DNA of 51,771 nucleotides from a candidate division WOR-3 bacterium. GTDB taxonomy: Bacteria > Hydrothermota > Tepidihabitantia > SM23-42. Positions 5,387 to 20,318 of this stretch are shown in pieces (position 1 is the first letter of the stretch; each line of letters starts with the position of its first letter). The translations under genes and the position numbers were made by a program. Under the pieces are notes generated by a model. It ran no database searches and had not been told where the DNA came from. It saw only the letters and a program-made list of their open reading frames with translations. Location: positions 1 through 51,771 of the forward strand of contig JACUUY010000002.1 in NCBI GenBank assembly GCA_014859085.1. Reading direction: 5' to 3'.

Positions 5387-5420
5387 TCAGTATAGTCTAG
5401 AGAGATTGGCTGGAGGGCAT

Positions 5421-7008: not shown

Positions 7009-8208
7009 TTACTTCCTGGCTACTCTGAGGAATTTGTGTTTGCCGGCGCGCAGCACGACCGGCTGTTTCAGGTCGACAACGTAGTTGATATCATCGATGC
7101 GCACGCCGTCGACATCGATCGCGCCTTCGCGGATCTTGCGCTTGGCTTCGCCCCTTGAACTCATCAGTTTACACTCGACCAGCAGGTCAACGATGCTCAT
7201 ACTTGCTTTCGCCACTTTGTGCTCATCGATCTTCTCGGGCAGTTCGCGCTGGGTGAACACGCGCTGAAAATCCTCGGCGGTTTTCTGAGCGGCTTGTGCC
7301 GAGTGGTACATGCGCACGAGCGTCTTTGCCAGGTCGAGCTTGGCGTCGCGCGGGTTCATCGAACCGTCCTCAAGGGCCATGTGGTATTCCTCGACGCGAT
7401 GAGGAAAGGCGTCGGTCGCCAGCCGGAAATATTTTACGATCAGTTCGTCAGGCAGAGACATGATCTTGCCGAGCATCTGCTTCGGCGTTTCGGTTATCCC
7501 GATGTAATTGTTGAAACTCTTGCTCATTTTCCGGATGCCGTCCAGACCCTCTAGGATCGGCATCATCAAGACCACCTGCGGCTCCATGCTGGATTCGCGC
7601 ATCAGTTCGCGACCCACGAGCAAATTGAATTTCTGGTCGGTGCCGCCGAGCTCGACATCGGACTTTATCGCCACCGAATCATAGCCCTGACAGAGCGGGT
7701 AGAGGATCTCGTGCATGTAAACGGGCAGGCCGTCCTTGAGCCGCTGCGAAAAATCGTCCCGCTCCAGGATGCGTGCGACCGTGTACTTCGATGCCAGTTC
7801 CACCAGGTCATACATTGACAGGGCGCCGAGCCATTTGCTGTTGAGGACGAACTCGGTCCGTTGCGGGTCGAGGATCCGGAATATCTGCTCCTTGTATTTC
7901 ACCATGTTCTTCTGGACCTGCTGCTTGGTCAGTTTGGGCCGCGTCTTGGATACACCGCTCGGGTCGCCGATCATACCGGTGAAGTCGCCCACGACCATGA
8001 CCGCGGTGTGGCCGAGGTCCTGGAATTGCCTCAGTTTGCGCAGGACAACGCTGAAACCGATGTGTATTTCCGGACCAGACGGGTCGATCCCGAGTTTGAC
8101 ACGCAACCGGCGTTTCGCCTTCAGTTTGTGCAGGAGTTCTTTTTCGGAGATCAGTTCGGCGATGCCGGCCTTGATGATCTCCAGCTGTTTATCGGCGTCG
8201 ATTGCCAT
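7009..8208 (-). CDS. tyrS: Tyrosine--tRNA ligase
   Basis: The HIGH-type motif is PSGPEIHIGF and the KMSKS motif is RKMSKS. The C-terminal S4-like RNA-binding domain reads SRGEAKRKIREGAIDVDGVRI. The gene overlaps the 3' end of the upstream radical SAM gene by 20 nt. Confidence 0.95.
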   Translation of the reverse strand: MAIDADKQLEIIKAGIAELISEKELLHKLKAKRRLRVKLGIDPSGPEIHIGFSVVLRKLRQFQDLGHTAVMVVGDFTGMIGDPSGVSKTRPKLTKQQVQKNMVKYKEQIFRILDPQRTEFVLNSKWLGALSMYDLVELASKYTVARILERDDFSQRLKDGLPVYMHEILYPLCQGYDSVAIKSDVELGGTDQKFNLLVGRELMRESSMEPQVVLMMPILEGLDGIRKMSKSFNNYIGITETPKQMLGKIMSLPDELIVKYFRLATDAFPHRVEEYHMALEDGSMNPRDAKLDLAKTLVRMYHSAQAAQKTAEDFQRVFTQRELPEKIDEHKVAKASMSIVDLLVECKLMSSRGEAKRKIREGAIDVDGVRIDDINYVVDLKQPVVLRAGKHKFLRVARK

Positions 8209-9610
8209 TCAGATAGATATCCTTCCAGATGGGCGTCGTCCTCTTGGCTAATTCCCGGTCATAGTCATCCATTTTTCTTTCATACTCGGCGTCTTTGATG
8301 ATCGCCGCGGTCACCTCGTCGGAGGGTGTGGCTTTTGTGTCGAGCACGAATTTCTTTGCCATCCGGTAATGGTCGCGGATCGGACAGGGCCGGAGCAGAT
8401 CGCCTTCTTTCCAGTACTTAAACTGCCAGTCCCGGATATGCGAGTAGAGAGGCAGGTCGACGAGGTCATTGAGGTTGCCGCCCCTGGCGTATATCTCGTC
8501 CATGTTCGCCGCCGCGTAGGGGAAGAACACGCAGGGATAGACTTTTGCCTGCCAGTCAATATAGAAATACCCACCTGGCCTGCCGGCCGATATGCAGCCG
8601 TCAGTGACCGGCCCGTGGTTCCAGAAATCGACGAACATGATCTTGCGTTTCTTAACTATTTCCCAGGATTTTTCCCACAGCATGACGCGCTGGTCCGGGG
8701 TCGGGATCAGGTCCGGGTCCACATCGCGGCCGATCGGCATGTAATGAAAGACCCATGCATAAGCCGCGCCCAGTTCGTTAAAGTAGTAATCAATGAATTT
8801 ATCCGAGACGATCTCCTCGGCATTGTGCCGGGTTGCCGTGACCGATATGCCGTACAGCACGCGGTGCTTCTTCAGTATCTGCATGGCGCGCGTGATCTTC
8901 TCGAAAACACCTTTACCGCGGCGCTGTTCAGTGACTTCCTGCATTCCTTCCACGGATATCGCCGGGGTGATATTGCCCAGGTCGTATAACTCGCCGGCGA
9001 CCCGGTCGCTTATCAGCGTGCCGTTCGTGTACATCAGGAACAGAGAGTCCGGGTGTTCGCGGTAGATATCCAGCACGCCTTTGCCGTGCCACTTGTACAT
9101 CAATGGCTCGCCGCCCGAGACAGTGACGAACCGCGCGCCCCAGAGCTCACGCATTTCCTCGATGATCCTGGTGAACGTTCCGTAGTCGAGCTGGTCCTTC
9201 TCCGACGCGGAGTTCGCATAACACCCGCGGCAGCGCAGGTTGCATCGCTTTGCCGGCGAGATGACCATGAAGCCGGGCGGATCAAAGCCGAATTTGCCCC
9301 GGAATTCTATTTCTTTTTTCATGCGCAGATCGCTGAGCATCGCTTTGCTGATGACCGTGCTCGCAAACTTCGAGGATGCGCCGATCTTCATGCTGGAATA
9401 TGCCATTGAACGAAACATGTAGTATTTGTCTTCCATCACGCCGGGCCACGTGACCGGACCTGGCACGCGGTTGAGCGCGCTCTTGATGCCCTTTTCTATT
9501 ACCGGGAACACGACGTGGTCGAAAAGAAGTGTATGTGATGTGTTAAATGCGATCTTCAGCATGTTGGTCACGAGCATATTATTCAATTTGATCTTCGATT
9601 CATTCTTCAT
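8189..9610 (-). CDS. Radical SAM protein (473 aa) with N-terminal ~110-aa extension and a 3-Cys twitch-like C-terminal region; substrate unknown
   Basis: The CX3CX2C motif is AKRCNLRCRGCYANS, followed by FVTVSGGEPLM. Only three further Cys are present (DGCISAG, KVYPCVFF, LRPCPIRD). The N-terminus is amphipathic or hydrophobic. Confidence 0.85.
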   Translation of the reverse strand: MKNESKIKLNNMLVTNMLKIAFNTSHTLLFDHVVFPVIEKGIKSALNRVPGPVTWPGVMEDKYYMFRSMAYSSMKIGASSKFASTVISKAMLSDLRMKKEIEFRGKFGFDPPGFMVISPAKRCNLRCRGCYANSASEKDQLDYGTFTRIIEEMRELWGARFVTVSGGEPLMYKWHGKGVLDIYREHPDSLFLMYTNGTLISDRVAGELYDLGNITPAISVEGMQEVTEQRRGKGVFEKITRAMQILKKHRVLYGISVTATRHNAEEIVSDKFIDYYFNELGAAYAWVFHYMPIGRDVDPDLIPTPDQRVMLWEKSWEIVKKRKIMFVDFWNHGPVTDGCISAGRPGGYFYIDWQAKVYPCVFFPYAAANMDEIYARGGNLNDLVDLPLYSHIRDWQFKYWKEGDLLRPCPIRDHYRMAKKFVLDTKATPSDEVTAAIIKDAEYERKMDDYDRELAKRTTPIWKDIYLNGNRRR

Positions 9611-9621
9611 GTCTACCTATT

Positions 9622-9649
9622 ATTATATACATAGAAACCTTCAAGTCAA
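9622..9649 (-). promoter_or_regulatory. Sigma70-type promoter TTGACT-16-TATAAT in front of the 473-aa radical SAM gene
   Basis: The minus strand reads TTGACT tgaaggtttctatgta TATAAT. Only 11 nt separate the -10 box from the ATG at 9610, and there is no clear SD. Confidence 0.5.
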
Positions 9650-9663
9650 CGACCGGCCGGTTC

Positions 9664-10371
9664 TTAGTTACCGCTCCGGCCGCGCCACTTTGCGTTAACG
9701 GCGTAGCGCCGGGCGATATCGACGAATGTCCTTGCCTCGCCCGCGGTGACTGCGGTCAACTGCCGGTATTTTTCATCGTATGCATTTTCAGGAACGTATT
9801 GCTGCAGCACCCACGTTCGTGCGCCGCGTATCCGTTCGCCTATTTCGCCAAGCGTCCCTTCATTGATCATACCGGGGACGCAGGTCGTGCGGAATTCGTA
9901 ATTGACCCGGCCTTCCATTAGCAGCCGCACCGACCGCTCTATCTTCTTTATATCAATATTCCTGCCGGCCGCTTCATTGTACCGTTCATCCAGAGGTGCC
10001 TTGATATCCATTGCCACGTAATCAACCAGGTCTTTGCTGATCAGTTCCTGCAGAGCATCAGGGTACGAACCATTGGTATCGATCTTCAGGAGGAATCCCA
10101 TCGCTTTCACGCCCCGGCTGACGGATAGGACTTCTTCGCCATACACGAACGGTTCGCCGCCGGTGAGTACTACACCATCGATCCATTTCTTCCTGGCAAG
10201 CAGTTTTCTTTCGATATCGCGCCATTCGATAAGCGGGAATTTCTCGCTGTTCAGCATCAGATCCCAGTTCTGGCAGAAGGGACACATGAAATTGCACTTG
10301 TCAAAGAAGAGGACGGTTGTCAGCTTGCCGTCCCAGTCGATCAATGAGGTCTCGATCATCGCTCGTATCAT
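9664..10371 (-). CDS. Radical SAM activating-enzyme family protein (NrdG/PflA-like)
   Basis: The motif FDKCNFMCPFCQNWDL (CX3CX2C followed by QNW) and VVLTGGEPF fit the family. At 235 aa the size is typical of anaerobic RNR activase-like proteins. No glycyl-radical enzyme gene is present in the window. Confidence 0.8.
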   Translation of the reverse strand: MIRAMIETSLIDWDGKLTTVLFFDKCNFMCPFCQNWDLMLNSEKFPLIEWRDIERKLLARKKWIDGVVLTGGEPFVYGEEVLSVSRGVKAMGFLLKIDTNGSYPDALQELISKDLVDYVAMDIKAPLDERYNEAAGRNIDIKKIERSVRLLMEGRVNYEFRTTCVPGMINEGTLGEIGERIRGARTWVLQQYVPENAYDEKYRQLTAVTAGEARTFVDIARRYAVNAKWRGRSGN

Positions 10372-10380
10372 GACGCCTAC

Positions 10381-10434
10381 CTAACTACCGTACTTTTTTC
10401 CAAAAATGCGGGAAAGTACCTCAACTGCCATCAT
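10381..10434 (-). CDS. Candidate mini-ORF (MMAVEVLSRIFGKKYGS) at the 3' end of repeat element copy A
   Basis: GGAGG lies 3-6 nt upstream of the tandem ATG ATG. The TAG stop is 9 nt before the ATG of the radical SAM activase, which itself lacks a good SD. The start position aligns with the mini-ORF start in copy B. Confidence 0.2.
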   Translation of the reverse strand: MMAVEVLSRIFGKKYGS

Positions 10435-10523
10435 CTGCCTCCACGAATTTTGCCCAGATCTTCGGTCTGGCTGTAAAATTCAGCGTCCAGCACTTTCGTC
10501 AGAGAGTGCGGGAGAATTGCCTC
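10429..10523 (-). repeat. Conserved structured intercistronic element, copy A (two hairpins plus SD plus start codon)
   Basis: The core 10444-10488 matches 18441-18485 at 42 of 45 positions, although the flanking genes are unrelated. Hairpin 1 is CCAGCACT...AGTGCGGG. Hairpin 2 has an outer stem GAATTTT/AAAATTC and an inner stem CCAGA/TCTGG. In copy B the inner stem is CCATA/TATGG, a G:C to U:A compensatory change. Confidence 0.6.
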
Positions 10524-10989
10524 AAGTGCCCTGAATTGCCCCGATCTCTTGTATTATCGCGTCCACTACTCTCGGTATGCTTTCTTTGACTTTCTGTGTG
10601 CATTCTTCGCTGAATGAATCATTATCCTCTATTTCGATTCCGTAGATCTCTGTCTTTTCGGGAATTGCCAGATTGAATTTCCTCCCGAGTTCCAGTGCGG
10701 TCGTAAAATTTATGCCATGCGAAGAAAATGAATGAACGTTTGTGAATGATGCGCTATCGATTTTATGGATGTCGCCCGGTCTTCCGTTTTCGGTCTTGAC
10801 CGAATCGATGAAGAACACTCGATCATAGTCAACGATTTCATCGAGAATAGCCAGACCGTCAATACTTCCCCACTTGACATCAACAGTGCTGTGTTTCAGT
10901 TTTCGGGCCAGTAGCTCAGCGACTTTGATACCCGCGCTATCGTCGCATCGGTAAGGATTGCCAATGCCATAGATCAGTATTCTCTTCAT
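10522..10989 (-). CDS. [NiFe] hydrogenase maturation endopeptidase
   Basis: The sequence MKRILIYGIGNPYRCDDSAGIKVAELL...FIDSV is typical of the HyaD/HybD/FrhD protease family. The gene lies directly downstream of the large subunit gene. Confidence 0.9.
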   Translation of the reverse strand: MKRILIYGIGNPYRCDDSAGIKVAELLARKLKHSTVDVKWGSIDGLAILDEIVDYDRVFFIDSVKTENGRPGDIHKIDSASFTNVHSFSSHGINFTTALELGRKFNLAIPEKTEIYGIEIEDNDSFSEECTQKVKESIPRVVDAIIQEIGAIQGT

Positions 10990-11097
10990 TAGTGAAAAAA
11001 GTTCCGTGAAGCACGCCAGGGCGCCAGACCACAGCCCAGACGCCTCTCAACAAAGATGATATGCACGCCCGGTCAATCTCAGGGCTAATAGACTATT

Positions 11098-12561
11098 CTA
11101 ATACGTTTTTATTGACCTCAACAACTTCTGGCCATGATCGTAGATGCTGACTTCGAGCGGCGTCCGGCCGTTAACCGTATGGGTTGCGCATGCCAGACAG
11201 GGATCATAGGCACGAAAGGCCATTTCCACCATGTTCAATAATCCATCGTCAACCTTGTTGCCTTTTATGAGGCCTTTGGCTGCCTTGGCTACTGACATGT
11301 TGATCGCCGCCGAGTTATTGACCGTTGCCACGATAAGATTGGCTTTGGTCAGGCGGCCATGTTCATCCGTTTCATAGTGATGGAAGAGCGTTCCCCTGGG
11401 TGCCTCGATCACACCGATGCCTTTCTTGGGCGTCTGGAAATCCATGTTTCGAATGTTAGGATCGAGTATTTGCGCGTCATTGATCAGTTCAACCATTCTT
11501 TCGGCGGACTGCAATGCCTCAATAAGTCTTGCCCAGTGTGTTGCCAGGGTTTTGTGTACGGGTTTGCCACCCAGAGTATCGTAGAATTTCTCGTAATGTT
11601 CCTGCGCCAGAGGTGTCGCCATGCCGTCGGATGCATTCAGTCTGGCCAGAGGCGCTACCCGGTAAACACCGCTTTCCTTACCGTCCGAAAAACCCTTCCA
11701 GCCGACGTTCTTCAGATACGGGAACTTGATATACGTCCAGGTCTCGATGCCCTCGGCTATGTGATCCAGGTATTCCTGGGCCTTGAATTTGGCGAATTCC
11801 TTGCCTTCGGGATCGACCACGCGGATCCAACCGTCGTAGAAATTAACCTTGTTATTGTCGTCGACCAACCCCATGTAGTAAGTTTGGTGCGTATAGATGT
11901 CGTTCAGTACGAGGTCGACGTATGCTTTATTCTTGAGGACGATATCGTCAAATGCTTGGAGAGAGAATTTGGCAAACTCGACCGCATCCTCAGCGGTTTT
12001 CTTGAAATCCGGCACCAGGTCCTTGGTCAGGGGTCTGGAAACGCCGCCCGGCAGGCAGTGCACGGGATGCACGACCCTGCCGCCCATGGTCTGGATGATG
12101 TTCCTTGTCCGTTTTCGTATGTCGATTACTTTCTTGCCTATTTCCAGACCGACCTTGCCGATAACGCCTACGATGTTACGCTCGGCCTTGGGCGCTGAAG
12201 GTCCAACGATGAAATCAGGACCGCCAAGAAAGTAGAAATGCAGATTGTGGTCCTCAAACATGAATGCGTTATATACGAATTCACGTATCCTTTGCGCAGC
12301 AGGAGGAGGTTGTACGCCGTAGAGGTCATCGAGTGTCTTACCCGAACAGGTGTGATGCGCTGTCGGGCACACTCCGCAAATTGTTTCAGTGATACGCGGC
12401 ATTTCTTCGGCGAGACGGCCGACTGCAAAACGTTCATATCCTCTTAGTTCGGGGACTTGTAGGCAAGCATGTGCTACATCCCCTTTTTCGTCAAGGAAGA
12501 TATCTATCTTGCCATGCCCTTCCAAACGCGTAATCGGGTCGATTGTGATTTCTTTGTACAT
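11098..12561 (-). CDS. mvhA: [NiFe] hydrogenase large subunit, Mvh/Vhu type (group 3c by context)
   Basis: The N-terminal motifs are RLEGHGKI and the Ni-binding ICGVCPTAHH. The C-terminal motif DPCLACATH precedes the cleavage extension. The gene is adjacent to mvhG and hdrA-mvhD. Confidence 0.95.
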   Translation of the reverse strand: MYKEITIDPITRLEGHGKIDIFLDEKGDVAHACLQVPELRGYERFAVGRLAEEMPRITETICGVCPTAHHTCSGKTLDDLYGVQPPPAAQRIREFVYNAFMFEDHNLHFYFLGGPDFIVGPSAPKAERNIVGVIGKVGLEIGKKVIDIRKRTRNIIQTMGGRVVHPVHCLPGGVSRPLTKDLVPDFKKTAEDAVEFAKFSLQAFDDIVLKNKAYVDLVLNDIYTHQTYYMGLVDDNNKVNFYDGWIRVVDPEGKEFAKFKAQEYLDHIAEGIETWTYIKFPYLKNVGWKGFSDGKESGVYRVAPLARLNASDGMATPLAQEHYEKFYDTLGGKPVHKTLATHWARLIEALQSAERMVELINDAQILDPNIRNMDFQTPKKGIGVIEAPRGTLFHHYETDEHGRLTKANLIVATVNNSAAINMSVAKAAKGLIKGNKVDDGLLNMVEMAFRAYDPCLACATHTVNGRTPLEVSIYDHGQKLLRSIKTY

Positions 12562-12562
12562 T

Positions 12563-13528
12563 TTACTCCCCCTGCTTTCGGTTGATTAGTGAACTGGGCA
12601 AAGTGTACATGTAGAACAGGCCGATCGGATCAATGATCGACTCGGCAATCTTCTTCACTTCCGCTTCATCATCGACATCAATGATCGAGGCGAGCCCGGA
12701 CATGAACCTCGCTCCCATGTCTTTTACTTCCCGGGTCGGTCCGAAGCACCCGCGGCATGGCATATTGGCATTGATGCACCGTTCGCCGCAGCCGCCCCGG
12801 GTCGCTGGACCAAGGCAAATGATACCTTCGGCCAGAAAGCATTTCTCCGGGTCGGCGATGACTTGTGAGATCCTCTTTATGTCTTTAATGGCCAGCTTCT
12901 CCGGTTTTGTCTTGTTCCTTGCGCAGGTCTCGCACAGCGCCTTTTCTGACGTGAGCACCGAGCCCTTAGCCGGCAGTTTGCCTTCGAGGATCGCCAGTAT
13001 GGCCTTCATGACGAGATCCGGAGGGGGGGCACAACCAGGCAGGTAGTAATCGACTTCTATCGTCTGGTCAAGGGTGTGCACCGTGTCAAATATCTCGGGC
13101 AGGGTCAATTTCCCGAATTCGGTTTCGGTCACGGTTTGCGGATAGATGCCCTTGGGGTTGGCGGTCGATGGCGTAGTCTTGTAGGCGGTTTCGAAGATCT
13201 CTCTGCGATTCGCGACATTGGCAAGACCGGGAATACCTCCGAGGTGGGCGCATGCGCCGTACGCGACGACGAGCTGGGATTTCCTGCGCAGAAGTTCTGC
13301 CAGGTGTTTCTGCTCGCTGGTGCGGATTGCACCGTTGATAAAACTGACGGCAAGCGCTTTGTCCGGCAGTGCCTCGACATCGGAATATTTGAAATCCATG
13401 GCAACCGGGAAGAGCTTGAACTCAACGGCATCGACGACCTTCAGGATATCTTCGGCAAGGTCAACGATCGATTCTTCACAGCCACCGCAGGAGGCACACC
13501 AGTAAAATGCGACTAATGGCTTGGCCAT
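12563..13528 (-). CDS. mvhG: [NiFe] hydrogenase small subunit, MvhG type
   Basis: The protein shows YWCASCGGCEESIVDL, GACAHLGGIPG, and distal FeS Cys clusters (CETCARN, GPATRGGCGERCINANMPCRGCFGP). Its stop lies 1 nt from the mvhA start. Confidence 0.9.
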   Translation of the reverse strand: MAKPLVAFYWCASCGGCEESIVDLAEDILKVVDAVEFKLFPVAMDFKYSDVEALPDKALAVSFINGAIRTSEQKHLAELLRRKSQLVVAYGACAHLGGIPGLANVANRREIFETAYKTTPSTANPKGIYPQTVTETEFGKLTLPEIFDTVHTLDQTIEVDYYLPGCAPPPDLVMKAILAILEGKLPAKGSVLTSEKALCETCARNKTKPEKLAIKDIKRISQVIADPEKCFLAEGIICLGPATRGGCGERCINANMPCRGCFGPTREVKDMGARFMSGLASIIDVDDEAEVKKIAESIIDPIGLFYMYTLPSSLINRKQGE

Positions 13529-13572
13529 TTATTTCCTCCTTTCTGCAAAACGAAAAACTTGATGATTATGTG

Positions 13573-13600
13573 ATTATATAGATTCCCGTGAATATTTCAA
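13573..13600 (-). promoter_or_regulatory. Sigma70-type promoter TTGAAA-16-TATAAT in front of mvhG
   Basis: The minus strand reads TTGAAA tattcacgggaatcta TATAAT. This is followed by a ~40-nt leader and the SD AAAGGAGGAAATAA before the ATG at 13528. Confidence 0.5.
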
Positions 13601-13658
13601 CATTCTCGTTGAGATTCTTTCCGGTATCCGGGTATTATCGTATTATGACTGTTCCCCC

Positions 13659-15767
13659 TTATTTATTCATTTCCTGCACAATTTCCACGAACTTATGGGC
13701 TTCATCCTTGCCGATCCACTCCAGCCGAACTTGGTTGCCTGCCATTCCAAGCGACTCCAGATTGAGTTTCAGGATCTGCTCGCGGGCCTTTGCCCGGAAA
13801 TTGCCCCGCGCATAGTGGCAGGCGTGGGGGTAACAGCCGCCGATGAGCACGCCTTTGGCGCCGTTGTTCAGGGCAAGCATGATATGGGATGGATCCACGG
13901 CACCGGTGCATGGAACACGGATGATCTTGACATTGCCAGGATAGCCCAGTTTGTCCTGCGCGGCCCTTTCGGTGGCGTTGTAGGCTGACCAGCGGCACAG
14001 AATGGCGACGATGTCTCCTTGTTGGGCCAGCTCTCGGATCTGCTCGCGCAGTCCTTCATGGTTCCACCCTTCCAGCTGGCTTGCGTAAGCCGGGCAGGTG
14101 ACCGAGCAGATACCGCAACCCATGCACAATTCCTCATTGATCTTGATCTTGTCCTCGACGACCGATATCGCACCGTAGGGACAGGTTCCGATGCACATGC
14201 GGCAGACGCTGCACAGGTCCTCATCGACGACGGCCTGGTTGATCTTCGTTTCAATCTCTTTCTGGGCCAGAAGACTCAGTGCCGAGTGCGATGCTTTGCG
14301 CGCGTCGATGAGGGTTTCGGCGACACCGCCCGGGAAAGTGGCCGCACCAGCCGTGAAAATGCCCCTGGGAAGTTCGGTATTGCTCAGTCCCGCATTTTCA
14401 TAGAGTACTGGAAAATCCACGGTCAAATTGATCTTCAATTTACTGAACGTCTCGACGTCGGGGACAAAACCGGAGCTCAGGACGACATTGTCGACCTCGA
14501 TCTCCATCAGCTCATTGGTGAACAGGTCTTCGGTCCTGACCGCCAGTTTCCCGTTCCATCTGAATACTTCAGACGGCTTACCCTTGATGAACGATACGCC
14601 CTTCTCGCGGAGCGTGTTATAGAGGTATTCAAACGTACCGTAACTCCTCATGTCCATGGCGGCCACGTAGACCTGGACGTCCGGATAACGGTCGATGATC
14701 AATTTTGCCTCCTTCAGTCCGAGCAGGCAGCAGATCTTTGAGCAGTATGGCAGGTGCTTTGAATCACGCGAACCGGCGCAGTAGATGATCGCGACTTTCT
14801 TCGGGCGCAGGGTTCCGGCCGCCACCGCACGCTCGAATTCGAGCGTCTTCATGACGCCGTCCAGACGGCCATAGCCGTATTCTTCGACCCGGCTCACGTC
14901 GTACCAAAGCAGGCCCGTGGCTACGATCACGGCCCCGGCTGCGATCTCGCTTACCTTTTCTTGTTCATTGAGATCGATCCTGCCGGGACAGACCTTAACG
15001 CATTCGCCGCAGCGCGTGCACGCCGCAAAATCGATCGCGTACATGTCAGGATAAGTGGGCACGTAATAGATCGCCTTTCTGCTCTTGCCCGCGTCGTCGA
15101 TTTCAACCGGACAAACATCAATGCACTTGCCGCAGTTGATGCATTCCTGAACGCCGCGCGGTCTGGTCACTAATTCTATTTTGTAGTCGCCAACCCGGCC
15201 GCTGACCTTAGTTATTTCGGTATTGCAGAGCGATACCGCATTTTTCTGCGACTGCATCGTGTTGATCAGGGGCATTAGCGTGTGGCTGTAAGGTGTTCCC
15301 TCAGGATACAGGCGGTCCAGCTTGGCCACGGTTCCGCCCAGGAACGGGGTCTTTTCGATCAGCGTCGTTTCGATTCCATTCTTGCTCAGCTGCGCCGTGA
15401 CTTCAATACCGGCGATCCCGCCGCCGATGACGAGTGCTTTCCGGCTGCTGATCTGGAAGAACTTTGTCTTGACCGGCCTGGTTTTCTCCATCTTCGCGAC
15501 CGCCGCGTTGATCATTTGTTCTGCTTTTTCAGGCCGGTGGCCGATCAGGAAGACATGTTCAAGGATATTCACGAATTCGGCATTGGTACCCGGGAACAAT
15601 CCCTCAAGCAGGTTCGGACTGCAGGCGGCGATCACTACTTTCTCATCGGGCGCGATCTCAGGTTTGGTTTTGCACAGGTCATCGAACTCCTCGACCTTGA
15701 CATCCGGGCCGAGCTTGAGTTTCGGCAGTTTGAGCGAGTTGTGGCAATTACACATCAATACTCTCAT
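13659..15767 (-). CDS. hdrA: HdrA-like flavoprotein fused to a C-terminal MvhD domain
   Basis: FAD motif: LVIGGGIAGIEVTAQL. Ferredoxin motifs: CINCGKCIDVCP, CTRCGECVKVCP, CSVCRMCIGTCP and CMGCGICSVTCP. HdrA signature: YCAGSRD...YCSKICC. The MvhD-type C-terminus reads ILCRWSAYN...RVPCTGAVD...GVLIGGCYPHACHY. I prefer the ATG at 15767 (GGGAGG 6 nt upstream) over 15773. Confidence 0.9.
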   Translation of the reverse strand: MRVLMCNCHNSLKLPKLKLGPDVKVEEFDDLCKTKPEIAPDEKVVIAACSPNLLEGLFPGTNAEFVNILEHVFLIGHRPEKAEQMINAAVAKMEKTRPVKTKFFQISSRKALVIGGGIAGIEVTAQLSKNGIETTLIEKTPFLGGTVAKLDRLYPEGTPYSHTLMPLINTMQSQKNAVSLCNTEITKVSGRVGDYKIELVTRPRGVQECINCGKCIDVCPVEIDDAGKSRKAIYYVPTYPDMYAIDFAACTRCGECVKVCPGRIDLNEQEKVSEIAAGAVIVATGLLWYDVSRVEEYGYGRLDGVMKTLEFERAVAAGTLRPKKVAIIYCAGSRDSKHLPYCSKICCLLGLKEAKLIIDRYPDVQVYVAAMDMRSYGTFEYLYNTLREKGVSFIKGKPSEVFRWNGKLAVRTEDLFTNELMEIEVDNVVLSSGFVPDVETFSKLKINLTVDFPVLYENAGLSNTELPRGIFTAGAATFPGGVAETLIDARKASHSALSLLAQKEIETKINQAVVDEDLCSVCRMCIGTCPYGAISVVEDKIKINEELCMGCGICSVTCPAYASQLEGWNHEGLREQIRELAQQGDIVAILCRWSAYNATERAAQDKLGYPGNVKIIRVPCTGAVDPSHIMLALNNGAKGVLIGGCYPHACHYARGNFRAKAREQILKLNLESLGMAGNQVRLEWIGKDEAHKFVEIVQEMNK

Positions 15768-15783
15768 GGTCATCCTCCCGGTC

Positions 15784-16644
15784 TCAGGTCGCTATCTTAT
15801 CGAGTATGGCGTCGGGTTTGATACGGTTGAACTTGAGACCGACCCCGTTGCCGTCGATACCCAGGCTCAAACCGAGGAGCTGGGGATAGTACAGAACTGG
15901 AATACCGTAATGGCGGCCGAACCTGGCTTCGGCCTTGCGCTGATTATCTTCATACATGACGGTGCAGAAAGGACATATCGATACCAGTCCGTCCGCTCCA
16001 TTTTCGTGCGCGATGTTCAGTTTGTGGTTGGCCATGGTTATTGCCGTTTCTTCGTCAATACCCAGGACTGAGCCGCCGCAGCACATCTTCTTGTCCGCAT
16101 ATTCGAGCGATTCGGCGCCGGTCGCGCGGACCAGTTCGTCGAGCGTGTGCGGCATCTCTGCATTGTCAAAACCGTAGAGATTGGATGGCCGCATGTAATG
16201 GCATCCGTAATGAGCCATGATCTTGAGCCGGGCGAGCGGCTTCTTGACGGCCTTGCGTATGTTCTCAATGCCGATATCTTCGTACAACATTCTGACGAAA
16301 TGGCGCACCTTGACTTCCCTGGGGTACGACATGCCCAATTTCTTGAACTTACTGCGGAATTCCTTCACGTTGAGCTGGACCTGGGCGTCAGACAGCATTG
16401 CCGTGCAGGAGTTGCAGAGCGTGACCACATCGAGGTCCATCTGGCTGGCAAGAGCGATATTACGCGCGGCGATCAGCAGGGCGGTTTCAGCATCAACCGC
16501 CTTCATGGGGAAGCCGCAACATGAGGCACCGGGTATATCGACGAGTTCCACACCCAATGCCCGGGCAACGTTACGCGCGCTGAGTTCGTAGTGTTGTGCC
16601 CGGACCGGAACAGTACATCCTAAGAAAATGGCGTATCTGTTCAT
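15784..16644 (-). CDS. hdrB: HdrB-like subunit (two CCG domains)
   Basis: The sequence is FLGCTVPVRAQHYE...ASCCGFP and AHYGCHYMRP...KKMCCGGS. There is a 4-nt start/stop overlap with hdrC. Confidence 0.9.
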   Translation of the reverse strand: MNRYAIFLGCTVPVRAQHYELSARNVARALGVELVDIPGASCCGFPMKAVDAETALLIAARNIALASQMDLDVVTLCNSCTAMLSDAQVQLNVKEFRSKFKKLGMSYPREVKVRHFVRMLYEDIGIENIRKAVKKPLARLKIMAHYGCHYMRPSNLYGFDNAEMPHTLDELVRATGAESLEYADKKMCCGGSVLGIDEETAITMANHKLNIAHENGADGLVSICPFCTVMYEDNQRKAEARFGRHYGIPVLYYPQLLGLSLGIDGNGVGLKFNRIKPDAILDKIAT

Positions 16645-17132
16645 TTCTGTAGCACCTTTAGAATGCCGGTATATTCAAGGATTCGAGCAACATCGGGTAT
16701 CGTCTTGTCGATCGCCGGGAGCCCCAGGCGTTGGCGCTTTTTCAGGTCGAAATCTTCTACCTCATAGAGCCGGCCCATTTTCAAGAGCAGATCGAGCTGC
16801 ATCTTGTAGCCTTCCGGGCAATAGCCCTGGTCCACGGCGTAGTTCTTGATCGCGTTGATCAGTTCTGCGACCCTGATGCCCTGGGGGCAACGCTCGGTGC
16901 AGGCATGGCAATGCGCGCAGAACCAGAGAAACGGCGAAGTGAGGACCCGGTCTTTCAGGCCGAGCAAGGTGAGGCGGATTATCTTTCTGGGATTGTAGTT
17001 CTCGTTGAAATACCGGACCGGACAGCTGGCAGCGCAATCACTGCATCCGAAACACTTGAGCAGTCCTTCGCCGCCTTCTTTCTTGACGATCTCCCATTTA
17101 AACTGCGGGTCGCTTTCCTTCAAGTCAATCAT
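16641..17132 (-). CDS. hdrC: HdrC-like 2x[4Fe-4S] subunit
   Basis: The cluster motifs are CFGCSDCAASCPV and CAHCHACTERCPQGI. I prefer the ATG at 17132 (AGGAG 10 nt upstream) over the TTG at 17138. Confidence 0.85.
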   Translation of the reverse strand: MIDLKESDPQFKWEIVKKEGGEGLLKCFGCSDCAASCPVRYFNENYNPRKIIRLTLLGLKDRVLTSPFLWFCAHCHACTERCPQGIRVAELINAIKNYAVDQGYCPEGYKMQLDLLLKMGRLYEVEDFDLKKRQRLGLPAIDKTIPDVARILEYTGILKVLQK

Positions 17133-17191
17133 AAGCAAACATCTCCTGTGATCGCATGTAAATATAATTCCCTGTCAATTTTATTATTGTT

Positions 17192-17236
17192 AAGAATGAA
17201 GGGGGTGCGAATGGGCGTTCCGTGCTATTTCGCCCC
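17192..17236 (-). terminator. Terminator-like hairpin plus U-rich tract inside the predicted hdrC leader (candidate attenuator)
   Basis: The minus-strand RNA reads GGGGCGAA-auagcacggaacgccca-UUCGCaCCCC, followed by CUUCAUUCUU. An alternative pairing GGGCG/CGCCC competes for the same bases. The hairpin lies downstream of the promoter at 17281-17308, so it sits in a 5' leader rather than at the end of lplA. Confidence 0.35.
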
Positions 17237-17280
17237 TGCATTATTCTGATAGTCCCGGCTCATTCAGATCCAACAGCGTT

Positions 17281-17308
17281 ATTATATGCATATTAGTCAT
17301 TCTGTCAA
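17281..17308 (-). promoter_or_regulatory. Sigma70-type promoter TTGACA-16-TATAAT for hdrCBA
   Basis: The minus strand reads TTGACA gaatgactaatatgca TATAAT. The promoter lies about 40 nt after the lplA-like stop codon and implies a ~140-nt leader before hdrC. Confidence 0.55.
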
Positions 17309-17346
17309 TCAGTGCCGATCAATCGCGGGACTCGACAAAACCGGTC

Positions 17347-18399
17347 CTATTTCGCTTCAACGATGGTTTTGGCGATATCTTCGGGCAGGACGCCGGGTGA
17401 TTCGATCTTCTTTTCGGCATAGGTCTTGGTCAGCTCTTCTTCGATCACATCGCGGTCAAAGTTTTTGTTTTTGAGGGCATTTTCCACATCATTGAGCGCC
17501 GCCTTTGGAAAGAGGTTAAAATCGCCGGAGACGACGATATCTTTGATCCGCGTTTTGTTCTCGATCTCCTCGGCGCTTCTTATCAGACCGCCTTTTGCCT
17601 TGTAGAGACCATAGAGGATCTCGATGCCTTCCTTTATTTTTACGCCCTGAGGAATACGCGGTGTCTTCTTATGGAGGAATTCATCAGACATGAACCACTG
17701 TTCGATCTCTTTAATCTTCCTGATCGTGGCATCATCGAGGGTGACCGGTTCCAGCCGTCCCAGGATACGCTCGAAGTTCTCGACCAGGATGCGTTTGATC
17801 TCGTTCCTGGCAGGGATCTCGCCCAGCTCGCGTTTCATGGTCGTGAGGTTCTCTTCCATGCTTTTGTATATTTTGTCGCGGAATTTCTCGTCGGGCACTT
17901 TGAGCACCCGGCTCATGGTCTCATAATCAAAATCCATCAATATACCGCCGACAAAGACCATGGAATCGCCGATGTCACCGCCGCCCTCACCGGCGATCTT
18001 CTTACCTTTATCGGTAATGATGTCATTCTCGGCGCGGAACGAGGCGTTGATGCCGAACGCGCGATAGGTTTCGCACGCCGGCACTGAGAGATACTGGAAG
18101 ATCTCTTTGATGTTGCGGGGAAGCTTTGGATTCCTGGAGTTCCAGATCACTTGATAAAATATCTGGTTCTCGTCAAGATAGGTCGCGCCGCCGCCGACTT
18201 CCCGGCGCATGACCGAGATATTATGCTGCGCGCAGTATTCCAGGTCGATCTCCTTTTCCGCGTCCTGGAAATAACCGACGCTGGCCAGCGGTTGCGCCGG
18301 TGACACGATAATGAGTCCTTCGTAGCCGAGCCGCGCCAGGGCGTGGAATATGAGCATCGAATCCTGCCCCGGCATTTTGTCCAGATTCAGAACGTTCAC
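17347..18399 (-). CDS. lplA: Lipoate--protein ligase family protein (LplA-like)
   Basis: The BPL/LplA/LipB catalytic domain is recognisable: SVGYFQDAEKEIDLEYCAQHNISVMRREVGGGATYLDENQ and the conserved-Lys region DKGKKIAGEGG. The start is GTG, preceded by AAAGGAG. Confidence 0.85.
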   Translation of the reverse strand: MNVLNLDKMPGQDSMLIFHALARLGYEGLIIVSPAQPLASVGYFQDAEKEIDLEYCAQHNISVMRREVGGGATYLDENQIFYQVIWNSRNPKLPRNIKEIFQYLSVPACETYRAFGINASFRAENDIITDKGKKIAGEGGGDIGDSMVFVGGILMDFDYETMSRVLKVPDEKFRDKIYKSMEENLTTMKRELGEIPARNEIKRILVENFERILGRLEPVTLDDATIRKIKEIEQWFMSDEFLHKKTPRIPQGVKIKEGIEILYGLYKAKGGLIRSAEEIENKTRIKDIVVSGDFNLFPKAALNDVENALKNKNFDRDVIEEELTKTYAEKKIESPGVLPEDIAKTIVEAK

Positions 18400-18428
18400 T
18401 ATTTTTCTCCTTTCTCAATAATGGTCAT
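18399..18428 (-). CDS. Candidate mini-ORF (MTIIEKGEK) at the 3' end of repeat element copy B
   Basis: GAAGG lies 6 nt upstream of the ATG. The TAG stop (18401-18399) overlaps the GTG start of lplA (18399-18397) by one nucleotide (TAGTG). Confidence 0.2.
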   Translation of the reverse strand: MTIIEKGEK

Positions 18429-18512
18429 ATTGTGCCTTCGCGAATTTTGCCCATATCTTCGATATGGCTGTAAAATTCAGCGTCCCGCACTGGAGTGCGG
18501 GGGTATTGCCTT
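18426..18512 (-). repeat. Conserved structured intercistronic element, copy B
   Basis: It has the same architecture as copy A. Hairpin 1 is CCCGCAC-uCCa-GUGCGGG (18484-18501). Hairpin 2 spans 18442-18478, with the outer stem GAATTTT/AAAATTC and the inner stem CCATATC-GAA-GATATGG. The glcD-like reading frame terminates at a TGA inside the conserved core. Confidence 0.6.
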
Positions 18513-19922
18513 GTCCGCCTTGCCAACCGGCAGTACCTTCCCCGGATTGAGGACATTCTTCGGGTCGAACGCCTGCTTTATCTTCTTCATCAACGCGATC
18601 TGCTTTTCATCCAGCGCCATTGCCAGGTAAGGTATTTTCGAAAGGCCGACGCCGTGTTCGGCTGTTATCGCGCCGCCCAGCGAGAGAGTGATCTCGTATA
18701 TCTCACGGCGCATCCGATCGATGTGCGCGGCGTCCATGTTCCTTGTCTTATCGATGCTCACATCGGCATGGATGTTTCCGTCGCCGAGGTGGCCGAAGGT
18801 GTAGACCGTAGCGTCATACTTGCCGACGCATTCCTTCAACCGGCTGATGAGTTGAGGGATCTGTTTTTTGGGAACGACGAGATCTTCGCGCGCCACGTTC
18901 TTGGTCAGTTCTTTCAATGTGTCGCCGACCTTCTTGCGGGGCTCCCACATTCTTTCTTTATCCCTGGTTCCCTCGGCCACGAGTATGTCGAGCGCGCCGT
19001 GTTTCAGCGCTATCTCGCCGATACGGTCATAGGTTTTCCTTACCGTTTTCTTGTCATCGCCGTCAATCTCGACGATCGTGTGGGCGTTCGCATCCATGTA
19101 GGGTATTTGTCGCGCAAGGTACTTTGATACCATGTGCACCACATCGCCCTCCATGAATTCGATTGAGGCCGGCATGAGGCCGGTCTGCATGACCTCCACG
19201 GCAAAATCCGTTGCTTCTTCGACGCAGGCAAAGGGGACGAGAAGGTCAACGATGACCTTGGGCAGGGGTAGGACCCGGATCGTCGCTTCGGTCACGATGG
19301 CGAGGGTTCCTTCTGAGCCGGTGATCAGGTTAATGAGGTCGTATCCAGTGGCGTTCTTCAGTAATTTGCCGCCCATCTTCAGCACCGTGCCGTCGGCAAG
19401 AACAGCGGTGATGCCGGTTACATAGTTTCTTGTCACTCCGTATTTCATTGCCCGCGGTCCGCCCGCGCACTCGGCAATATTGCCGCCGATCGTGCATGAA
19501 TCGAGGCTGACCGGGTCGGGCGGGAAGAAAAGGCCATGTTTTGCCAGCTCTTTGCCCAGTTGTTCGGTGACGATGCCGGGTTGGGTCGTGACCATCATGT
19601 TGTCCTCGTCGATCTCGACTATCTTGTTCATTCTCTCGAGCGAGAGGACGATGCCGCCGTGAATGGGCACGGCGCCGGCCGACAGGCACGTGCCGCCGCC
19701 CCGAGGCGTGACCGGGATGTTGTTTTCGTGGGCAAGAAGCATGATCCGGGCCACCTGGTCCGTGGTATCAGGCCGAACGACTGCTTCGGGCATTGCCTTG
19801 TACAACGGTGTTTCGTCATGCGCGTAGTTCTCCAGGGTCTCCGGGTCGGTAATGACATTCGCCGCCCCGGCGATCTCTATCAACTCGTGGAGTATCCGGT
19901 CATCGACCTTGGCATAGGGCAT
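18477..19922 (-). CDS. glcD: FAD-linked oxidase, GlcD / D-2-hydroxyacid dehydrogenase family
   Basis: The FAD_binding_4 region is IPVTPRGGGTCLSAGAVP and the C-terminal oxidase domain shows FGHLGDGNIH and ITAEHGVGL. The usual family ending NPGKVLP is followed by 16 extra residues encoded by repeat copy B. Confidence 0.9.
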   Translation of the reverse strand: MPYAKVDDRILHELIEIAGAANVITDPETLENYAHDETPLYKAMPEAVVRPDTTDQVARIMLLAHENNIPVTPRGGGTCLSAGAVPIHGGIVLSLERMNKIVEIDEDNMMVTTQPGIVTEQLGKELAKHGLFFPPDPVSLDSCTIGGNIAECAGGPRAMKYGVTRNYVTGITAVLADGTVLKMGGKLLKNATGYDLINLITGSEGTLAIVTEATIRVLPLPKVIVDLLVPFACVEEATDFAVEVMQTGLMPASIEFMEGDVVHMVSKYLARQIPYMDANAHTIVEIDGDDKKTVRKTYDRIGEIALKHGALDILVAEGTRDKERMWEPRKKVGDTLKELTKNVAREDLVVPKKQIPQLISRLKECVGKYDATVYTFGHLGDGNIHADVSIDKTRNMDAAHIDRMRREIYEITLSLGGAITAEHGVGLSKIPYLAMALDEKQIALMKKIKQAFDPKNVLNPGKVLPVGKADKAIPPHSSAGR

Positions 19923-19930
19923 ATGTGTCT

Positions 19931-19958
19931 ATTATACACAATTTCAACGGTATTTCAA
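19931..19958 (-). promoter_or_regulatory. Sigma70-type promoter TTGAAA-16-TATAAT; glcD-like mRNA would be leaderless
   Basis: The minus strand reads TTGAAA taccgttgaaattgtg TATAAT agacacat ATG. Only 8 nt separate the -10 box from the start codon, and there is no SD. Confidence 0.55.
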
Positions 19959-19976: not shown

Positions 19977-20150
19977 CTACTTACCGGGCCGTATTTTGTA
20001 TTTGTTCGTCTTATACCGCAGCACGCGTTCGGAAATGCCGAGTTCGGCCGCGGCTTTTGATTGATTACCGTCGGTTCTCGCCAGGGCCTCTCGGATCATC
20101 TCCATTTCGATCCGGGCGACGGCCTCGTTGAGCAGGCCAGACGGTATCGT
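19977..20150 (-). pseudogene. Orphan Fis-type (HTH_8) DNA-binding domain; remnant of a sigma54 enhancer-binding protein, or a very small standalone HTH
   Basis: The C-terminal sequence LLNEAVARIEMEMIREALARTDGNQSKAAAELGISERVLRYKTNKYKI is a clear HTH_8. No AAA+ or receiver domain lies upstream. The only in-frame ATGs (20105 and 20099, the two Met of MEMIREAL) lack an SD. The rest of the 145-aa ORF is low-complexity and overlaps a plus-strand promoter and gene. Confidence 0.4.
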
Positions 20151-20189
20151 GTGTGGAGTTCTCTGGCACGCTAAAGAAAAAGGTCCGTG

Positions 20190-20218
20190 CTTGACATCGT
20201 CCTTCGGCGTGCCTACAA
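20190..20218 (+). promoter_or_regulatory. Sigma70-type promoter TTGACA-17-TACAAT for the 20319 lipoprotein gene
   Basis: The sequence is TTGACA tcgtccttcggcgtgcc TACAAT. SD GGAGG lies 5 nt before the ATG at 20319. Confidence 0.55.
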
Positions 20219-20318
20219 TCTGCCGCGAGTGGTGCGTACAGCATTGCTTCGTGATCAACGATTCGGACGGCTGATTTGCTTCATAATGAGGTCGAGATCG
20301 TGGAAATAGGGAGGAACA

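Follow-up and report, generated by a model that had tools for sequence, protein, structure and literature searches.

Genes for HdrABC-MvhADG occur commonly in bacteria and archaea in which neither coenzyme M (CoM) nor coenzyme B (CoB) is made. What Hdr reduces in these organisms has been an open question for over ten years, and DsrC is the sole candidate to have been tested, in part. Here we describe a 51.8-kb stretch of DNA from a candidate division WOR-3 bacterium (contig JACUUY010000002.1, positions 1 to 51,771; referred to as the window), in which genes for such a complex accompany genes for a lipoate-protein ligase homolog (LplA-like), a GcvH-like lipoyl carrier, and 2-hydroxyacid dehydrogenases of the GlcD family. 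In methanogens, MvhADG-HdrABC (PDB 5ODC) bifurcates electrons from H2 to CoM-S-S-CoB, a heterodisulfide, and to ferredoxin (Kaster 2011 and Wagner 2017, as presented in PMC5861303). Sulfate reducers combine FlxABCD-HdrABC with the protein dithiol of DsrC (Ramos 2015 and Ferreira 2023, as presented in PMC10920352), and sulfur oxidizers possess an sHdr system with LbpA (PMC6067878) as well as an sLpl(AB)-LipS1/S2 lipoate assembly machinery (PMC10332631). Besides, a cluster of Ehe-HdrBC-HdrA2B2C2-GcvH genes is known from Culexarchaeia, for which the authors speculated in 2022 that GcvH carries an unknown disulfide (PMC9723716), while a GcvH/MTHFR idea was judged highly unlikely by its own authors (PMC8760232). 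Mvh-Hdr of WOR-3 has been listed before and was read as a hydrogenotrophic system of the CoM-CoB type; neither lipoate nor hydroxyacids came up there (PMC12542636). We found no description of a module joining LplA/GcvH with Mvh-Hdr and GlcD in the open full-text literature (subscription literature lay outside the search), in keeping with the initial annotation of this DNA, which knew of no characterized example.

The window contains a complete methanogen-type HdrA(MvhD)BC plus MvhAG, and these genes are genetically tied to LplA-like, GcvH-like, and GlcD-type genes (Table 1). Identities of the candidate genes were taken from a list of open reading frames (ORFs) and from Pfam and NCBIfam scans, and the eleven-gene minus-strand order drawn in the initial annotation, from the glcD-like gene to tyrS, was recovered in full by ORF listing and family scans. 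We put at about even the chance that the lipoylated GcvH-like protein would act as a dithiol/disulfide electron shuttle between the hydroxyacid dehydrogenases and a bifurcating or confurcating Hdr-Mvh.

For HdrB, HdrA, and MvhA, the best match was in each case a solved methanogen chain, and the motifs were kept. HdrB scored 244 bits against 9sfi_C and 241 bits against 5odc_B with both CC...C..C motifs aligned, and it carries the two-CCG pattern (CX31-39CCX35-36CXXC). HdrA, a flavoprotein of the kind with one inserted and one C-terminal ferredoxin part, gave 301 bits against methanogen 5odc_A over residues 44 to 572, compared with 102 bits against sHdrA (6tjr), and residues 587 to 702 of HdrA::MvhD match MvhD chains; the sHdr type that the initial annotation had considered for HdrA and HdrB thus gives way to the methanogen type. 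MvhA scored 382 bits against 5odc_F and retains the nickel-binding motifs CGVC..H (N-terminal) and DPCLACATH (C-terminal), and matches to structure chains and models point to a group 3c-like [NiFe] assignment for MvhA and MvhG. The hdrC stop overlaps the hdrB start, and HdrC more likely begins at the ATG at 17132, which lies behind an AGGAG and gives 163 aa, as in homologs. The maturation protease gene follows mvhA in WOR-3 and Thermoplasmatota loci.

Like the methanogen complex, the window thus possesses all six functional units (HdrA, HdrB, HdrC, MvhD, MvhG, and MvhA) with intact motifs. It differs, however, in its WOR-3 host, in the fusion of MvhD to HdrA, and in scores below the NCBIfam equivalog cutoffs (HdrB, 266 bits against a cutoff of 345; HdrC, 101 against 160; HdrA2, 497 against 1100; VhuA, 399 against 800; VhuG, 202 against 450). 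A CoM/CoB context was also not seen in the window: as the initial annotation had noted, none of the scanned ORFs of the 51.8 kb was recognized as a gene for CoM/CoB biosynthesis or Mcr/methanogenesis. Furthermore, the links to LplA-like, GcvH-like, and GlcD genes are not present in methanogen clusters, and the proposed substrate would be a protein-bound lipoyl disulfide of much lower potential.

The LplA-like protein, which serves as the marker of the conserved module, matched PF21948 with 121 bits and PF10437 with 25.8 bits, and it scored below cutoff with the LplB model (53 bits, cutoff 65) and with the equivalog TIGR00545 (138 bits, cutoff 280). The catalytic, adenylate-binding K134 (GKKIAG) and R65-R66/G69-G71 (RRxxGGGAxYLD) were invariant in 20 members and align to 6jom and 1vqz; the protein is a putative ATP-dependent ligase acting on an apo-carrier. 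Sequence motifs of the family are VPDEKFRD and G[KQ]KIAGEGG. Alignment of this family against one genome per GTDB species gave at least 559 stretches, the best 80 of which are 53 to 85% identical; labels such as L021 and L063 below denote individual loci. Their hosts are WOR-3/Stahlbacteria, TA06, Zixibacteria, Hydrothermota, Acidobacteriota, Clostridia, several lineages of Desulfobacterota, and the archaeal Thermoplasmatota. In a neighbor-joining tree, the LplA-like proteins formed a tight, separate clade far from LplAB paralogs, and the Hdr/GlcD/GcvH context occurred across the whole tree; Thermoplasmatota appeared at two places in it, a pattern that suggests the module has spread horizontally. 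Within the family, Cys56 is invariant and Cys109 nearly so, which would be odd for a mere maturation enzyme.

We compared the window proteins with the LplA-like loci by tblastn, counting partners outward from the LplA-like gene, in this one direction, within a radius of 8 kb at the 47 loci that are flanked by 3 kb or more on either side. At 37 of these 47 loci, GlcD, a CCG protein (HdrB or HdrD), or GcvH was encoded no more than 8 kb from the LplA-like gene. The most frequent partners were GlcD (34 loci) and a CCG protein (33), followed by HdrC (23), HdrA (21), MvhA (15), and GcvH (14). Reference-free clustering of the neighboring ORFs returned the same partners and no others at comparable frequency. 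The arrangement is far beyond chance: the same gene order recurs in complete WOR-3 genomes and the linkage of LplA-like, Hdr, GlcD, and GcvH genes extends across phyla and domains; the conservation check proposed in the initial annotation thus came out in favor of a conserved neighborhood reaching far beyond WOR-3. Two kinds of neighbor did not travel with the rest: tyrS and both radical S-adenosylmethionine (SAM) genes were cluster neighbors only within WOR-3, and one complete WOR-3 genome is without the 473-aa radical SAM gene.

In most loci, the gene directly upstream of the LplA-like gene encodes GlcD or GlcD::HdrD. It is the stand-alone GlcD in most WOR-3 loci and the GlcD::HdrD fusion in L021 and the Thermoplasmatota loci. 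The locus L021 (WOR-3 RBG_13_43_14) carries LarA-GcvH-MDH-MDH-LarA-GlcD::HdrD-LplA-HdrC-HdrB in a single run (MDH, malate dehydrogenase), which suggests that the two loci of the window, joined there, belong to one system. At positions 7826 to 9928 of L021, the HdrD half of the fusion is split into ORFs of 536 and 158 aa, and residues of about 495 to 716 are mostly gone; the HdrD part may decay once HdrCB adjoins, as it does in this locus. LplA-like and GcvH-like genes appear to lie on the same contig in several assemblies, including CP070664.1. In this complete WOR-3 genome, the LplA-like gene itself is split over two sites (L023, about 560 to 581 kb, and L064, about 879 to 899 kb), with residues 1 to 292 beside GlcD and residues 87 to 350 beside HdrCBA-MvhGA-HycI-NrdG2-radical SAM-TyrS, so that the gene was either broken by a rearrangement or misassembled.

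Thermoplasmatota carry HdrA-HdrC'-HdrB'-MvhG-MvhA-HycI-MvhD-GlcD-HdrD-LplA-HdrC-HdrB-giant HdrA/GltD fusion-MvhD-Flx-like (e.g., L032, from MvhG on), with genes that abut or overlap. The giant proteins, of 1477 to 1884 aa, combine HdrA-like with GltD/NAD(P)H-oxidoreductase-like parts downstream of the LplA-adjacent HdrCB (L032, 12415 to 17367; also L027, L067, and L085), and in L032 the MvhD and Flx-like genes come after the giant protein. In L085 and L086, HdrD-LplA-HdrC-HdrB-OsmC-giant HdrA-MvhD-GcvH constitute one operon; the OsmC-family gene between HdrB and the giant HdrA (2636 to 3098) was seen in this single lineage. In the Thermoplasmatota loci L027 and L067, the cluster closes with an LplAB-type ligase, a geranylgeranyl-reductase-family (LipT-like) protein, and LipS1. 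LipT, of the same reductase family, is said to be part of the sHdr/LbpA lipoate-assembly gene set.

GcvH directly adjoins the LplA-like gene in L035, L037, L038, L045, L052, L068, and L079, and the order in Syntrophobacterales loci is GcvH-LplA-(gap)-GlcD::HdrD. A further variant is found in Desulfobacteraceae (L063, 3531 to 11053), where the genes run LarA-GlcD-HdrD-GcvH-HdrD' (DsrK-like)-NarI/DsrM-like membrane protein-LplA; this variant would connect the quinone pool with the same carrier. L063 also contains a divergent pyruvate phosphate dikinase.

The GcvH-like ORF that the initial annotation had placed at 47159 proved to be real, with the lipoyl lysine kept: its QSSKW aligns with ESTKS of GcvH. 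Homologs are 75 to 92% identical across WOR-3 and 68 to 69% identical in Thermoplasmatales, and the protein passes TIGR00527 marginally (117.9 bits, cutoff 115.85). GcvT and GcvP were seen neither in the window nor as recurrent neighbors of LplA-like loci. The GcvH proteins of the module do not belong to NCBIfam NF045810 (a GcvH-related protein of sulfate reducers), against which they scored 37 to 49 bits with a cutoff of 150. As for the neighboring enzymes, the LarA-like protein reached 383 bits with the LarAH6 malate racemase model (cutoff 500) versus 286 bits with that of lactate racemase, so that it best matches the malate racemase subfamily as far as model scores can indicate. The two MDH paralogs scored 446 and 367 bits against TIGR01763 (cutoff 351.85), and both keep the arginine that specifies oxaloacetate; in the second, PQM replaces the usual PGM of the substrate loop, and the same MDH pair occurs in L021. 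The trio of GcvH, LarA-like, and GlcD::HdrD genes is kept in other WOR-3 genomes with differing flanks. A radical SAM gene beside the trio in L084 encodes an unrelated AmmeMemoRadiSam enzyme.

Table 1. Genes and promoter-like sites of the main cluster and the second locus in the window (promoter sites are consensus matches only)
Feature	Position	Strand	Supporting match or remark
FAD-dependent D-2-hydroxyacid dehydrogenase, GlcD family, LctD-like, 481 aa	18477-19922	-	Pfam FAD_binding_4 + FAD-oxidase_C
LplA-like homolog of lipoate-protein ligases, LplB-like domain fused at the C terminus, 350 aa	17347-18399	-	LplA-B_cat + Lip_prot_lig_C
HdrC, di-cluster (two [4Fe-4S]) ferredoxin-like	16641-17132 (ORF to 17138)	-	Pfam, NCBIfam
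HdrB, two CCG domains (non-cubane [4Fe-4S] clusters, disulfide-reducing site)	15784-16644	-	PF02754 twice
HdrA, flavoprotein of bifurcating type with MvhD fused to it, 704 aa	13659-15773	-	C-terminal FlpD/MvhD domain
MvhG, [NiFe] hydrogenase small subunit, VhuG-like	12563-13528	-	PF01058; VhuG model 202 bits
MvhA, large subunit, group 3c-like [NiFe] hydrogenase	11098-12561	-	5odc_F match
Hydrogenase maturation endopeptidase, HycI/FrhD-like	10522-10989	-	TIGR00072 100 bits, above cutoff
NrdG2-type radical SAM, 235 aa	9664-10371	-	177 bits, cutoff 131
Radical SAM, generic, 473 aa	8189-9610	-	SPASM/twitch-like models
TyrS	7009-8208	-	Family scan
GlcD::HdrD fusion (FAD 2-hydroxyacid dehydrogenase + di-cluster ferredoxin + two CCG), 832 aa	44500-46998	-	
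GcvH-like lipoyl carrier	47159-47608; likely start 47590 or 47593, 143-144 aa	-	PF01597
LarA-family nickel-pincer 2-hydroxyacid racemase	47781-49163	-	Lar_N + LarA_C
Two tandem NAD-dependent malate dehydrogenase paralogs	49215-50150, 50165-51088	-	TIGR01763
Sigma70-like promoter TTGAAA-16-TATAAT	19931-19958	-	Consensus match, ends 8 nt before glcD ATG
Perfect promoter TTGACA-16-TATAAT before hdrC	17281-17308	-	~140-nt 5' untranslated region with conserved long-range stem follows

In the mechanism that we propose, the LplA-like enzyme would lipoylate the GcvH-like protein, and the lipoyl disulfide/dithiol would take the role that CoM-S-S-CoB has in methanogens. Where CCG domains are of the HdrB/HdrD/DsrK type, they act as thiol:disulfide sites (Wagner 2017, as presented in PMC5861303), and therefore a lipoyl group on the GcvH-like protein would be the simplest substrate for them to share. 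At the CCG site of GlcD::HdrD, the lipoyl group would exchange two electrons with a D-2-hydroxyacid/2-oxoacid couple, either D-malate/oxaloacetate or D-lactate/pyruvate, supplied via the LarA-like racemase and the NAD-dependent malate dehydrogenases. In HdrB, the same group would act at the CCG site as the high-potential branch of the flavin of HdrA, whose remaining branches would lead to ferredoxin (Fd) and, via MvhD, to the hydrogenase. The net reaction would be 2 H2 + Fd(ox) + 2-oxoacid <-> Fd(red) + D-2-hydroxyacid, with H2 taken up when the 2-oxoacid is on hand as the real electron sink and, in reverse, H2 produced from hydroxyacid and reduced ferredoxin at low H2 pressure. The stand-alone LctD-like GlcD might dock on HdrC/HdrB or act through the carrier. 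Which hydroxyacid would be used is uncertain, since the MDH pair and the malate-racemase-like LarA hint at malate and the LctD-like GlcD at lactate.

Across the loci, the constant elements are the GcvH-like carrier, the LplA-family enzyme, and two or more CCG-domain proteins, and the variable ones are the GlcD-type donor side and, on the other side, HdrA-hydrogenase, NAD(P)H, or membrane quinone modules. A broader proposal, which we hold more tentatively and somewhat short of even odds, is that a methanogen-type HdrABC family, widespread and dispersed horizontally among nonmethanogens (WOR-3, Thermoplasmatota, Desulfobacterota, and others), would have lipoyl-GcvH as its physiological "heterodisulfide," a swinging dithiol/disulfide arm between GlcD::HdrD and Mvh, Flx/GltD-type NAD(P)H, or DsrMK-like outputs. 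In WOR-3, the trio of MDH, malate racemase, and D-malate dehydrogenase would then make an NADH-to-lipoyl shuttle, and the system as a whole would be a [NiFe] counterpart of those confurcating hydrogenases that depend on NADH and ferredoxin.

The couples involved bear on the direction of such a system. The lipoyl couple is near -290 mV and ferredoxin near -500 mV under cell conditions, and the acceptors stand at -190 mV (pyruvate/lactate) and -172 mV (oxaloacetate/malate). H2 is at -414 mV, ferredoxin at -420 mV, and CoM-S-S-CoB at -140 mV according to PMC5861303, and a value of -325 mV for lipoyl is cited in PMC8760232. With a lipoyl couple near -290 to -325 mV, the Hdr step would lie near equilibrium, and therefore the system should be reversible.

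Several observations weigh against the carrier proposal. Its whole basis is gene neighborhood together with intact motifs. The lipoyl couple lies 150 to 185 mV below CoM-S-S-CoB, leaving little driving force for H2-to-ferredoxin electron transfer by itself, and reduction of lipoyl by the hydroxyacid runs uphill at standard conditions. In the window, the GcvH-like gene is 27 kb away from the Hdr cluster; a role of its product in glycine cleavage is possible, judging from the canonical GcvH models that it passed. Neither a CCG nor a thiol module is present in the stand-alone GlcD, and several promoter-like sites lie within the main cluster. About one-fifth of the well-flanked LplA-like members have no Hdr, GlcD, or GcvH neighbor, and at L060, L065, and L066 the neighbors, named from a reading of their sequences, are a thioredoxin (WCGPC motif), a Fur-like protein, and others. 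Finally, cross-domain identity is 54 to 63% for the LplA-like protein, against 60 to 63% for MvhA and 47 to 52% for HdrB/C, and the archaeal loci L027 and L067 hold an additional, conventional LplAB ligase beside the LplA-like one. Because of this high conservation and the coexisting LplAB ligase, the LplA-like protein may have a role beyond or other than maturation, and it may be a stoichiometric loader or a scaffold subunit.

Four other explanations rank below a lipoyl-GcvH shuttle. The best of them, which we consider unlikely, is a direct confurcation with no carrier, in which the LctD-like GlcD would dock on HdrABC/MvhD as LctD does on EtfAB and pass electrons via HdrC/HdrB (lactate + Fd(red) -> pyruvate + 2 H2); some other function, e.g., in glycine cleavage or lipoate salvage, would then fall to the LplA-like and GcvH-like proteins. 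The best solved relative of the stand-alone GlcD is indeed 7qh2_C, LctD of the Acetobacterium woodii Ldh-EtfAB complex (362 bits, E value of 4e-107, full length), GlcD is kept beside the cluster in WOR-3, and GcvH lies outside the main cluster of the window. Besides, the CCG proteins GlcF and LutA serve hydroxyacid dehydrogenases with no known thiol, although GlcF-like scores are weak here (21 bits for HdrB and 22 bits for HdrC). Direct docking, however, leaves unexplained why tight and frequently overlapping operons of two domains place the LplA-like gene between GlcD/HdrD and HdrC, why GcvH lies inside hdr operons, and why lipoate synthesis genes stand at the ends of archaeal clusters, and HdrB possesses the full set of disulfide-reductase motifs.

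The same evidence bears on the initial annotation, which had equated GlcD plus HdrBC with GlcD plus GlcF and supposed 2-hydroxyacid oxidation coupled to H2. The 2-hydroxyacid link stood, given the GlcD gene upstream of the LplA-like gene and the likeness to LctD; the strict equivalence to GlcDF is at most putative. GlcD scored 418 bits against the GlcD equivalog (cutoff 568), a separate GlcE gene is not present, and with the weak GlcF scores the proteins fall outside glycolate oxidase GlcDEF. Identity between the stand-alone GlcD and the GlcD half of the GlcD::HdrD fusion amounts to only 33%. In Ldh-EtfAB (LctBCD, PDB 7QH2) we find a comparable set of a LctD-like GlcD and a LarA-family racemase facing the same problem of oxidizing a hydroxyacid near -190 mV. 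The racemase of the lct operon is LctF, a LarA-family member. The window differs from that system in that no ETF domain was found in any of its scanned ORFs, EtfAB thus being absent; HdrA would take the place of the bifurcating flavoprotein, and H2 rather than NADH would be the output.

An sHdr-like handling of sulfur, with lipoyl-GcvH bringing a persulfide to an Hdr coupled to hydrogenase, possibly for sulfur or polysulfide reduction with H2, seems to us improbable. Group 3 hydrogenases can act as sulfhydrogenases, and the combination of Hdr with a GcvH-like protein, a ligase of its own, and archaeal LipS1/LipT largely mirrors the sHdr-LbpA genes (PMC6067878, PMC10332631). The likeness to sHdr-LbpA thus consists of CCG proteins coupled to a GcvH-like protein and a dedicated LplA-family ligase, with LplAB, LipT-like, and LipS1 proteins in the archaeal relatives. 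In contrast to sHdr, however, HdrA here is of the full bifurcating type with MvhD (301 versus 102 bits) and a [NiFe] hydrogenase, the hosts are anaerobic, and there is one set of single HdrC and HdrB, not the duplicated hdrC1B1/hdrC2B2. No recurrent family of TusA, DsrE, or rhodanese size was found in the 80 LplA-like neighborhoods and none in the window cluster, so that membership in sHdr fails on the sHdrA type, the duplicated genes, and the sulfurtransferases alike, and the recurrent partners (GlcD, LarA, and MDH, i.e., hydroxyacid dehydrogenases and a racemase) are enzymes of carbon metabolism.

A part of the sHdr idea in the initial annotation did hold. Its core, a lipoyl protein as the Hdr substrate, agrees with the linkage of LplA-like and GcvH-like genes to HdrCB/HdrD in bacteria and archaea and with the LplAB/LipT-like/LipS1 genes of two archaeal loci; the sHdr-like system and the two radical SAM lipoyl synthases that came with it fell away. 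The two radical SAM genes encode an NrdG2-type activase and a generic SPASM/twitch-like enzyme; no LipS model was among the hits listed for them, and a true LipS1 from L067 scores 223 bits. LipS1 and LipT-like genes were found only in the archaeal relatives L027 and L067, and the window is without LipS1/S2. Thus, the two ideas of the initial annotation, lipoyl substrate and hydroxyacid oxidation, look like two halves of one carrier-linked system.

If anything more improbable is a thiol stress defense, in which H2 or hydroxyacids would keep lipoyl-GcvH reduced for OsmC/Ohr peroxidases and repair enzymes and no energy would be conserved. Lipoyl proteins serve as the reductant of Ohr/OsmC peroxidases, as Cussiol and coworkers reportedly found in 2010. 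OsmC lies between HdrB and HdrA in L085 and L086, MsrA/B adjoins the GcvH trio in L083, and ORFs read from their sequence as thioredoxin (WCGPC) and disulfide-reductase-like occur near the LplA-like gene in Hdr-less delta loci. In Staphylococcus aureus, GcvH-L shields the cell from oxidative stress (PMC12440151). OsmC, however, is confined to one lineage, a bifurcating HdrA with hydrogenase would be heavy machinery for a housekeeping reductant, and the strongest conserved partners are catabolic dehydrogenases. Mere juxtaposition of a housekeeping lipoate ligase and a standard nonmethanogen Mvh-Hdr (with a DsrC-like or other substrate) is very improbable: WOR-3 metagenome-assembled genomes (MAGs) with mvhADG-hdrABC have been reported without a lipoate link (PMC12542636), the cluster has separate promoter-like sites, and unrelated genes such as tyrS and the nrdG-like one are syntenic here, but the linkage spans at least eight phylum-level groups and both domains in differing gene orders, tyrS and the radical SAM genes are by contrast confined to WOR-3, and the LplA-like family is a distinct, unusually conserved clade.

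Precedents for pairing Hdr with a protein dithiol are DsrC in Flx-Hdr (PMC10920352), LbpA in sHdr (PMC6067878), and, as a speculation, GcvH in Culexarchaeia (PMC9723716). A lipoyl-GcvH shuttle can also be set beside three other systems. With Flx-Hdr/DsrC it shares a bacterial HdrABC, a proposed protein dithiol/disulfide, and reversibility, and Flx-like modules occur in the archaeal versions described here; it differs in that the carrier would be lipoyl-GcvH, H2 would enter via Mvh instead of NADH via Flx, and the window has no dsr genes. The Culexarchaeia cluster likewise places GcvH among hydrogenase and Hdr genes in a nonmethanogen, whereas its hydrogenase is membrane bound and of group 4, no link to LplA-like, GlcD/HdrD, or lipoate synthesis was reported, and it is known from one lineage. 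The membrane thiol:quinone modules DsrMK and HdrDE resemble L063, where GcvH is accompanied by an HdrD/DsrK-like protein and by a NarI/DsrM-like membrane protein; this arrangement is absent from the window, and the substrate in L063 would be lipoyl-GcvH and not DsrC or CoM-S-S-CoB. What is new is therefore a lipoate-linked Hdr built on bifurcating methanogen-type Hdr-Mvh plus hydroxyacid dehydrogenases, lipoate-linked Hdr having been known from sulfur oxidizers only (PMC6067878, PMC10332631).

The main cluster probably comprises several transcription units. Promoter-like sites also precede mvhG and the 473-aa radical SAM gene, and the hexamers of the hdrC promoter are invariant in nine WOR-3 loci, whereas the remaining lplA-hdrC spacer (17133 to 17346) has about 52% mean column identity; with these several sites, the cluster is unlikely to form one obligatory operon. 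The 5' untranslated region of hdrC contains, in the five closest relatives, an invariant long-range stem, GAAUGAG..GGGA/UCCC.CUCAUUC, around a variable loop of about 25 to 50 nt. The stem had neither covariation nor an Rfam match, and the region may be a regulatory leader. Before the glcD ATG no Shine-Dalgarno sequence was found, and it is plausible from the promoter spacing that the transcript is leaderless or nearly so. A sigma54 promoter before glcD was considered and rejected, its matches being not above chance. Rfam and tRNA scans of the whole window returned no matches.

Some features of the flanks may be noted. The 145-aa ORF at 19977 to 20414 (minus strand) is a remnant, only the C-terminal HTH_8 part of a sigma54 response regulator; in the complete WOR-3 genomes CP070686.1 and CP070834.1, a full sigma54 regulator and a histidine kinase precede glcD, and in the window unrelated plus-strand ORFs follow the remnant. 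Secreted proteins with type IX secretion system (T9SS) C-terminal sorting domains flank the cluster on the plus strand (5406 to 6998 and 23389 to 24987), consistent with an FCB-group or WOR-3 host. At the other end of the cluster, tyrS overlaps the 473-aa radical SAM gene by 20 nt, the N- and C-terminal regions of the 473-aa protein have no family assignment, and nrdD was not found in the window. In the second locus, a weak flavodoxin-like ORF (43726 to 44403, plus strand; 35 bits) converges on the 3' end of GlcD::HdrD.

The linkage described here names a purifiable candidate substrate, lipoyl-GcvH, together with the enzymes that would load, reduce, and oxidize it, so that the question of the Hdr substrate in nonmethanogens becomes directly testable. 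If the proposal is true, the noncanonical role of lipoate, so far known only from sHdr sulfur oxidation, would extend to anaerobic energy metabolism with H2 and hydroxyacids, and it would explain lactate and malate oxidation coupled to H2 in sediment fermenters and syntrophs. Furthermore, "hydrogenotrophic" annotations of Mvh-Hdr in MAG surveys, e.g., those of 34 WOR-3 MAGs (PMC12542636), would then have to be read differently.

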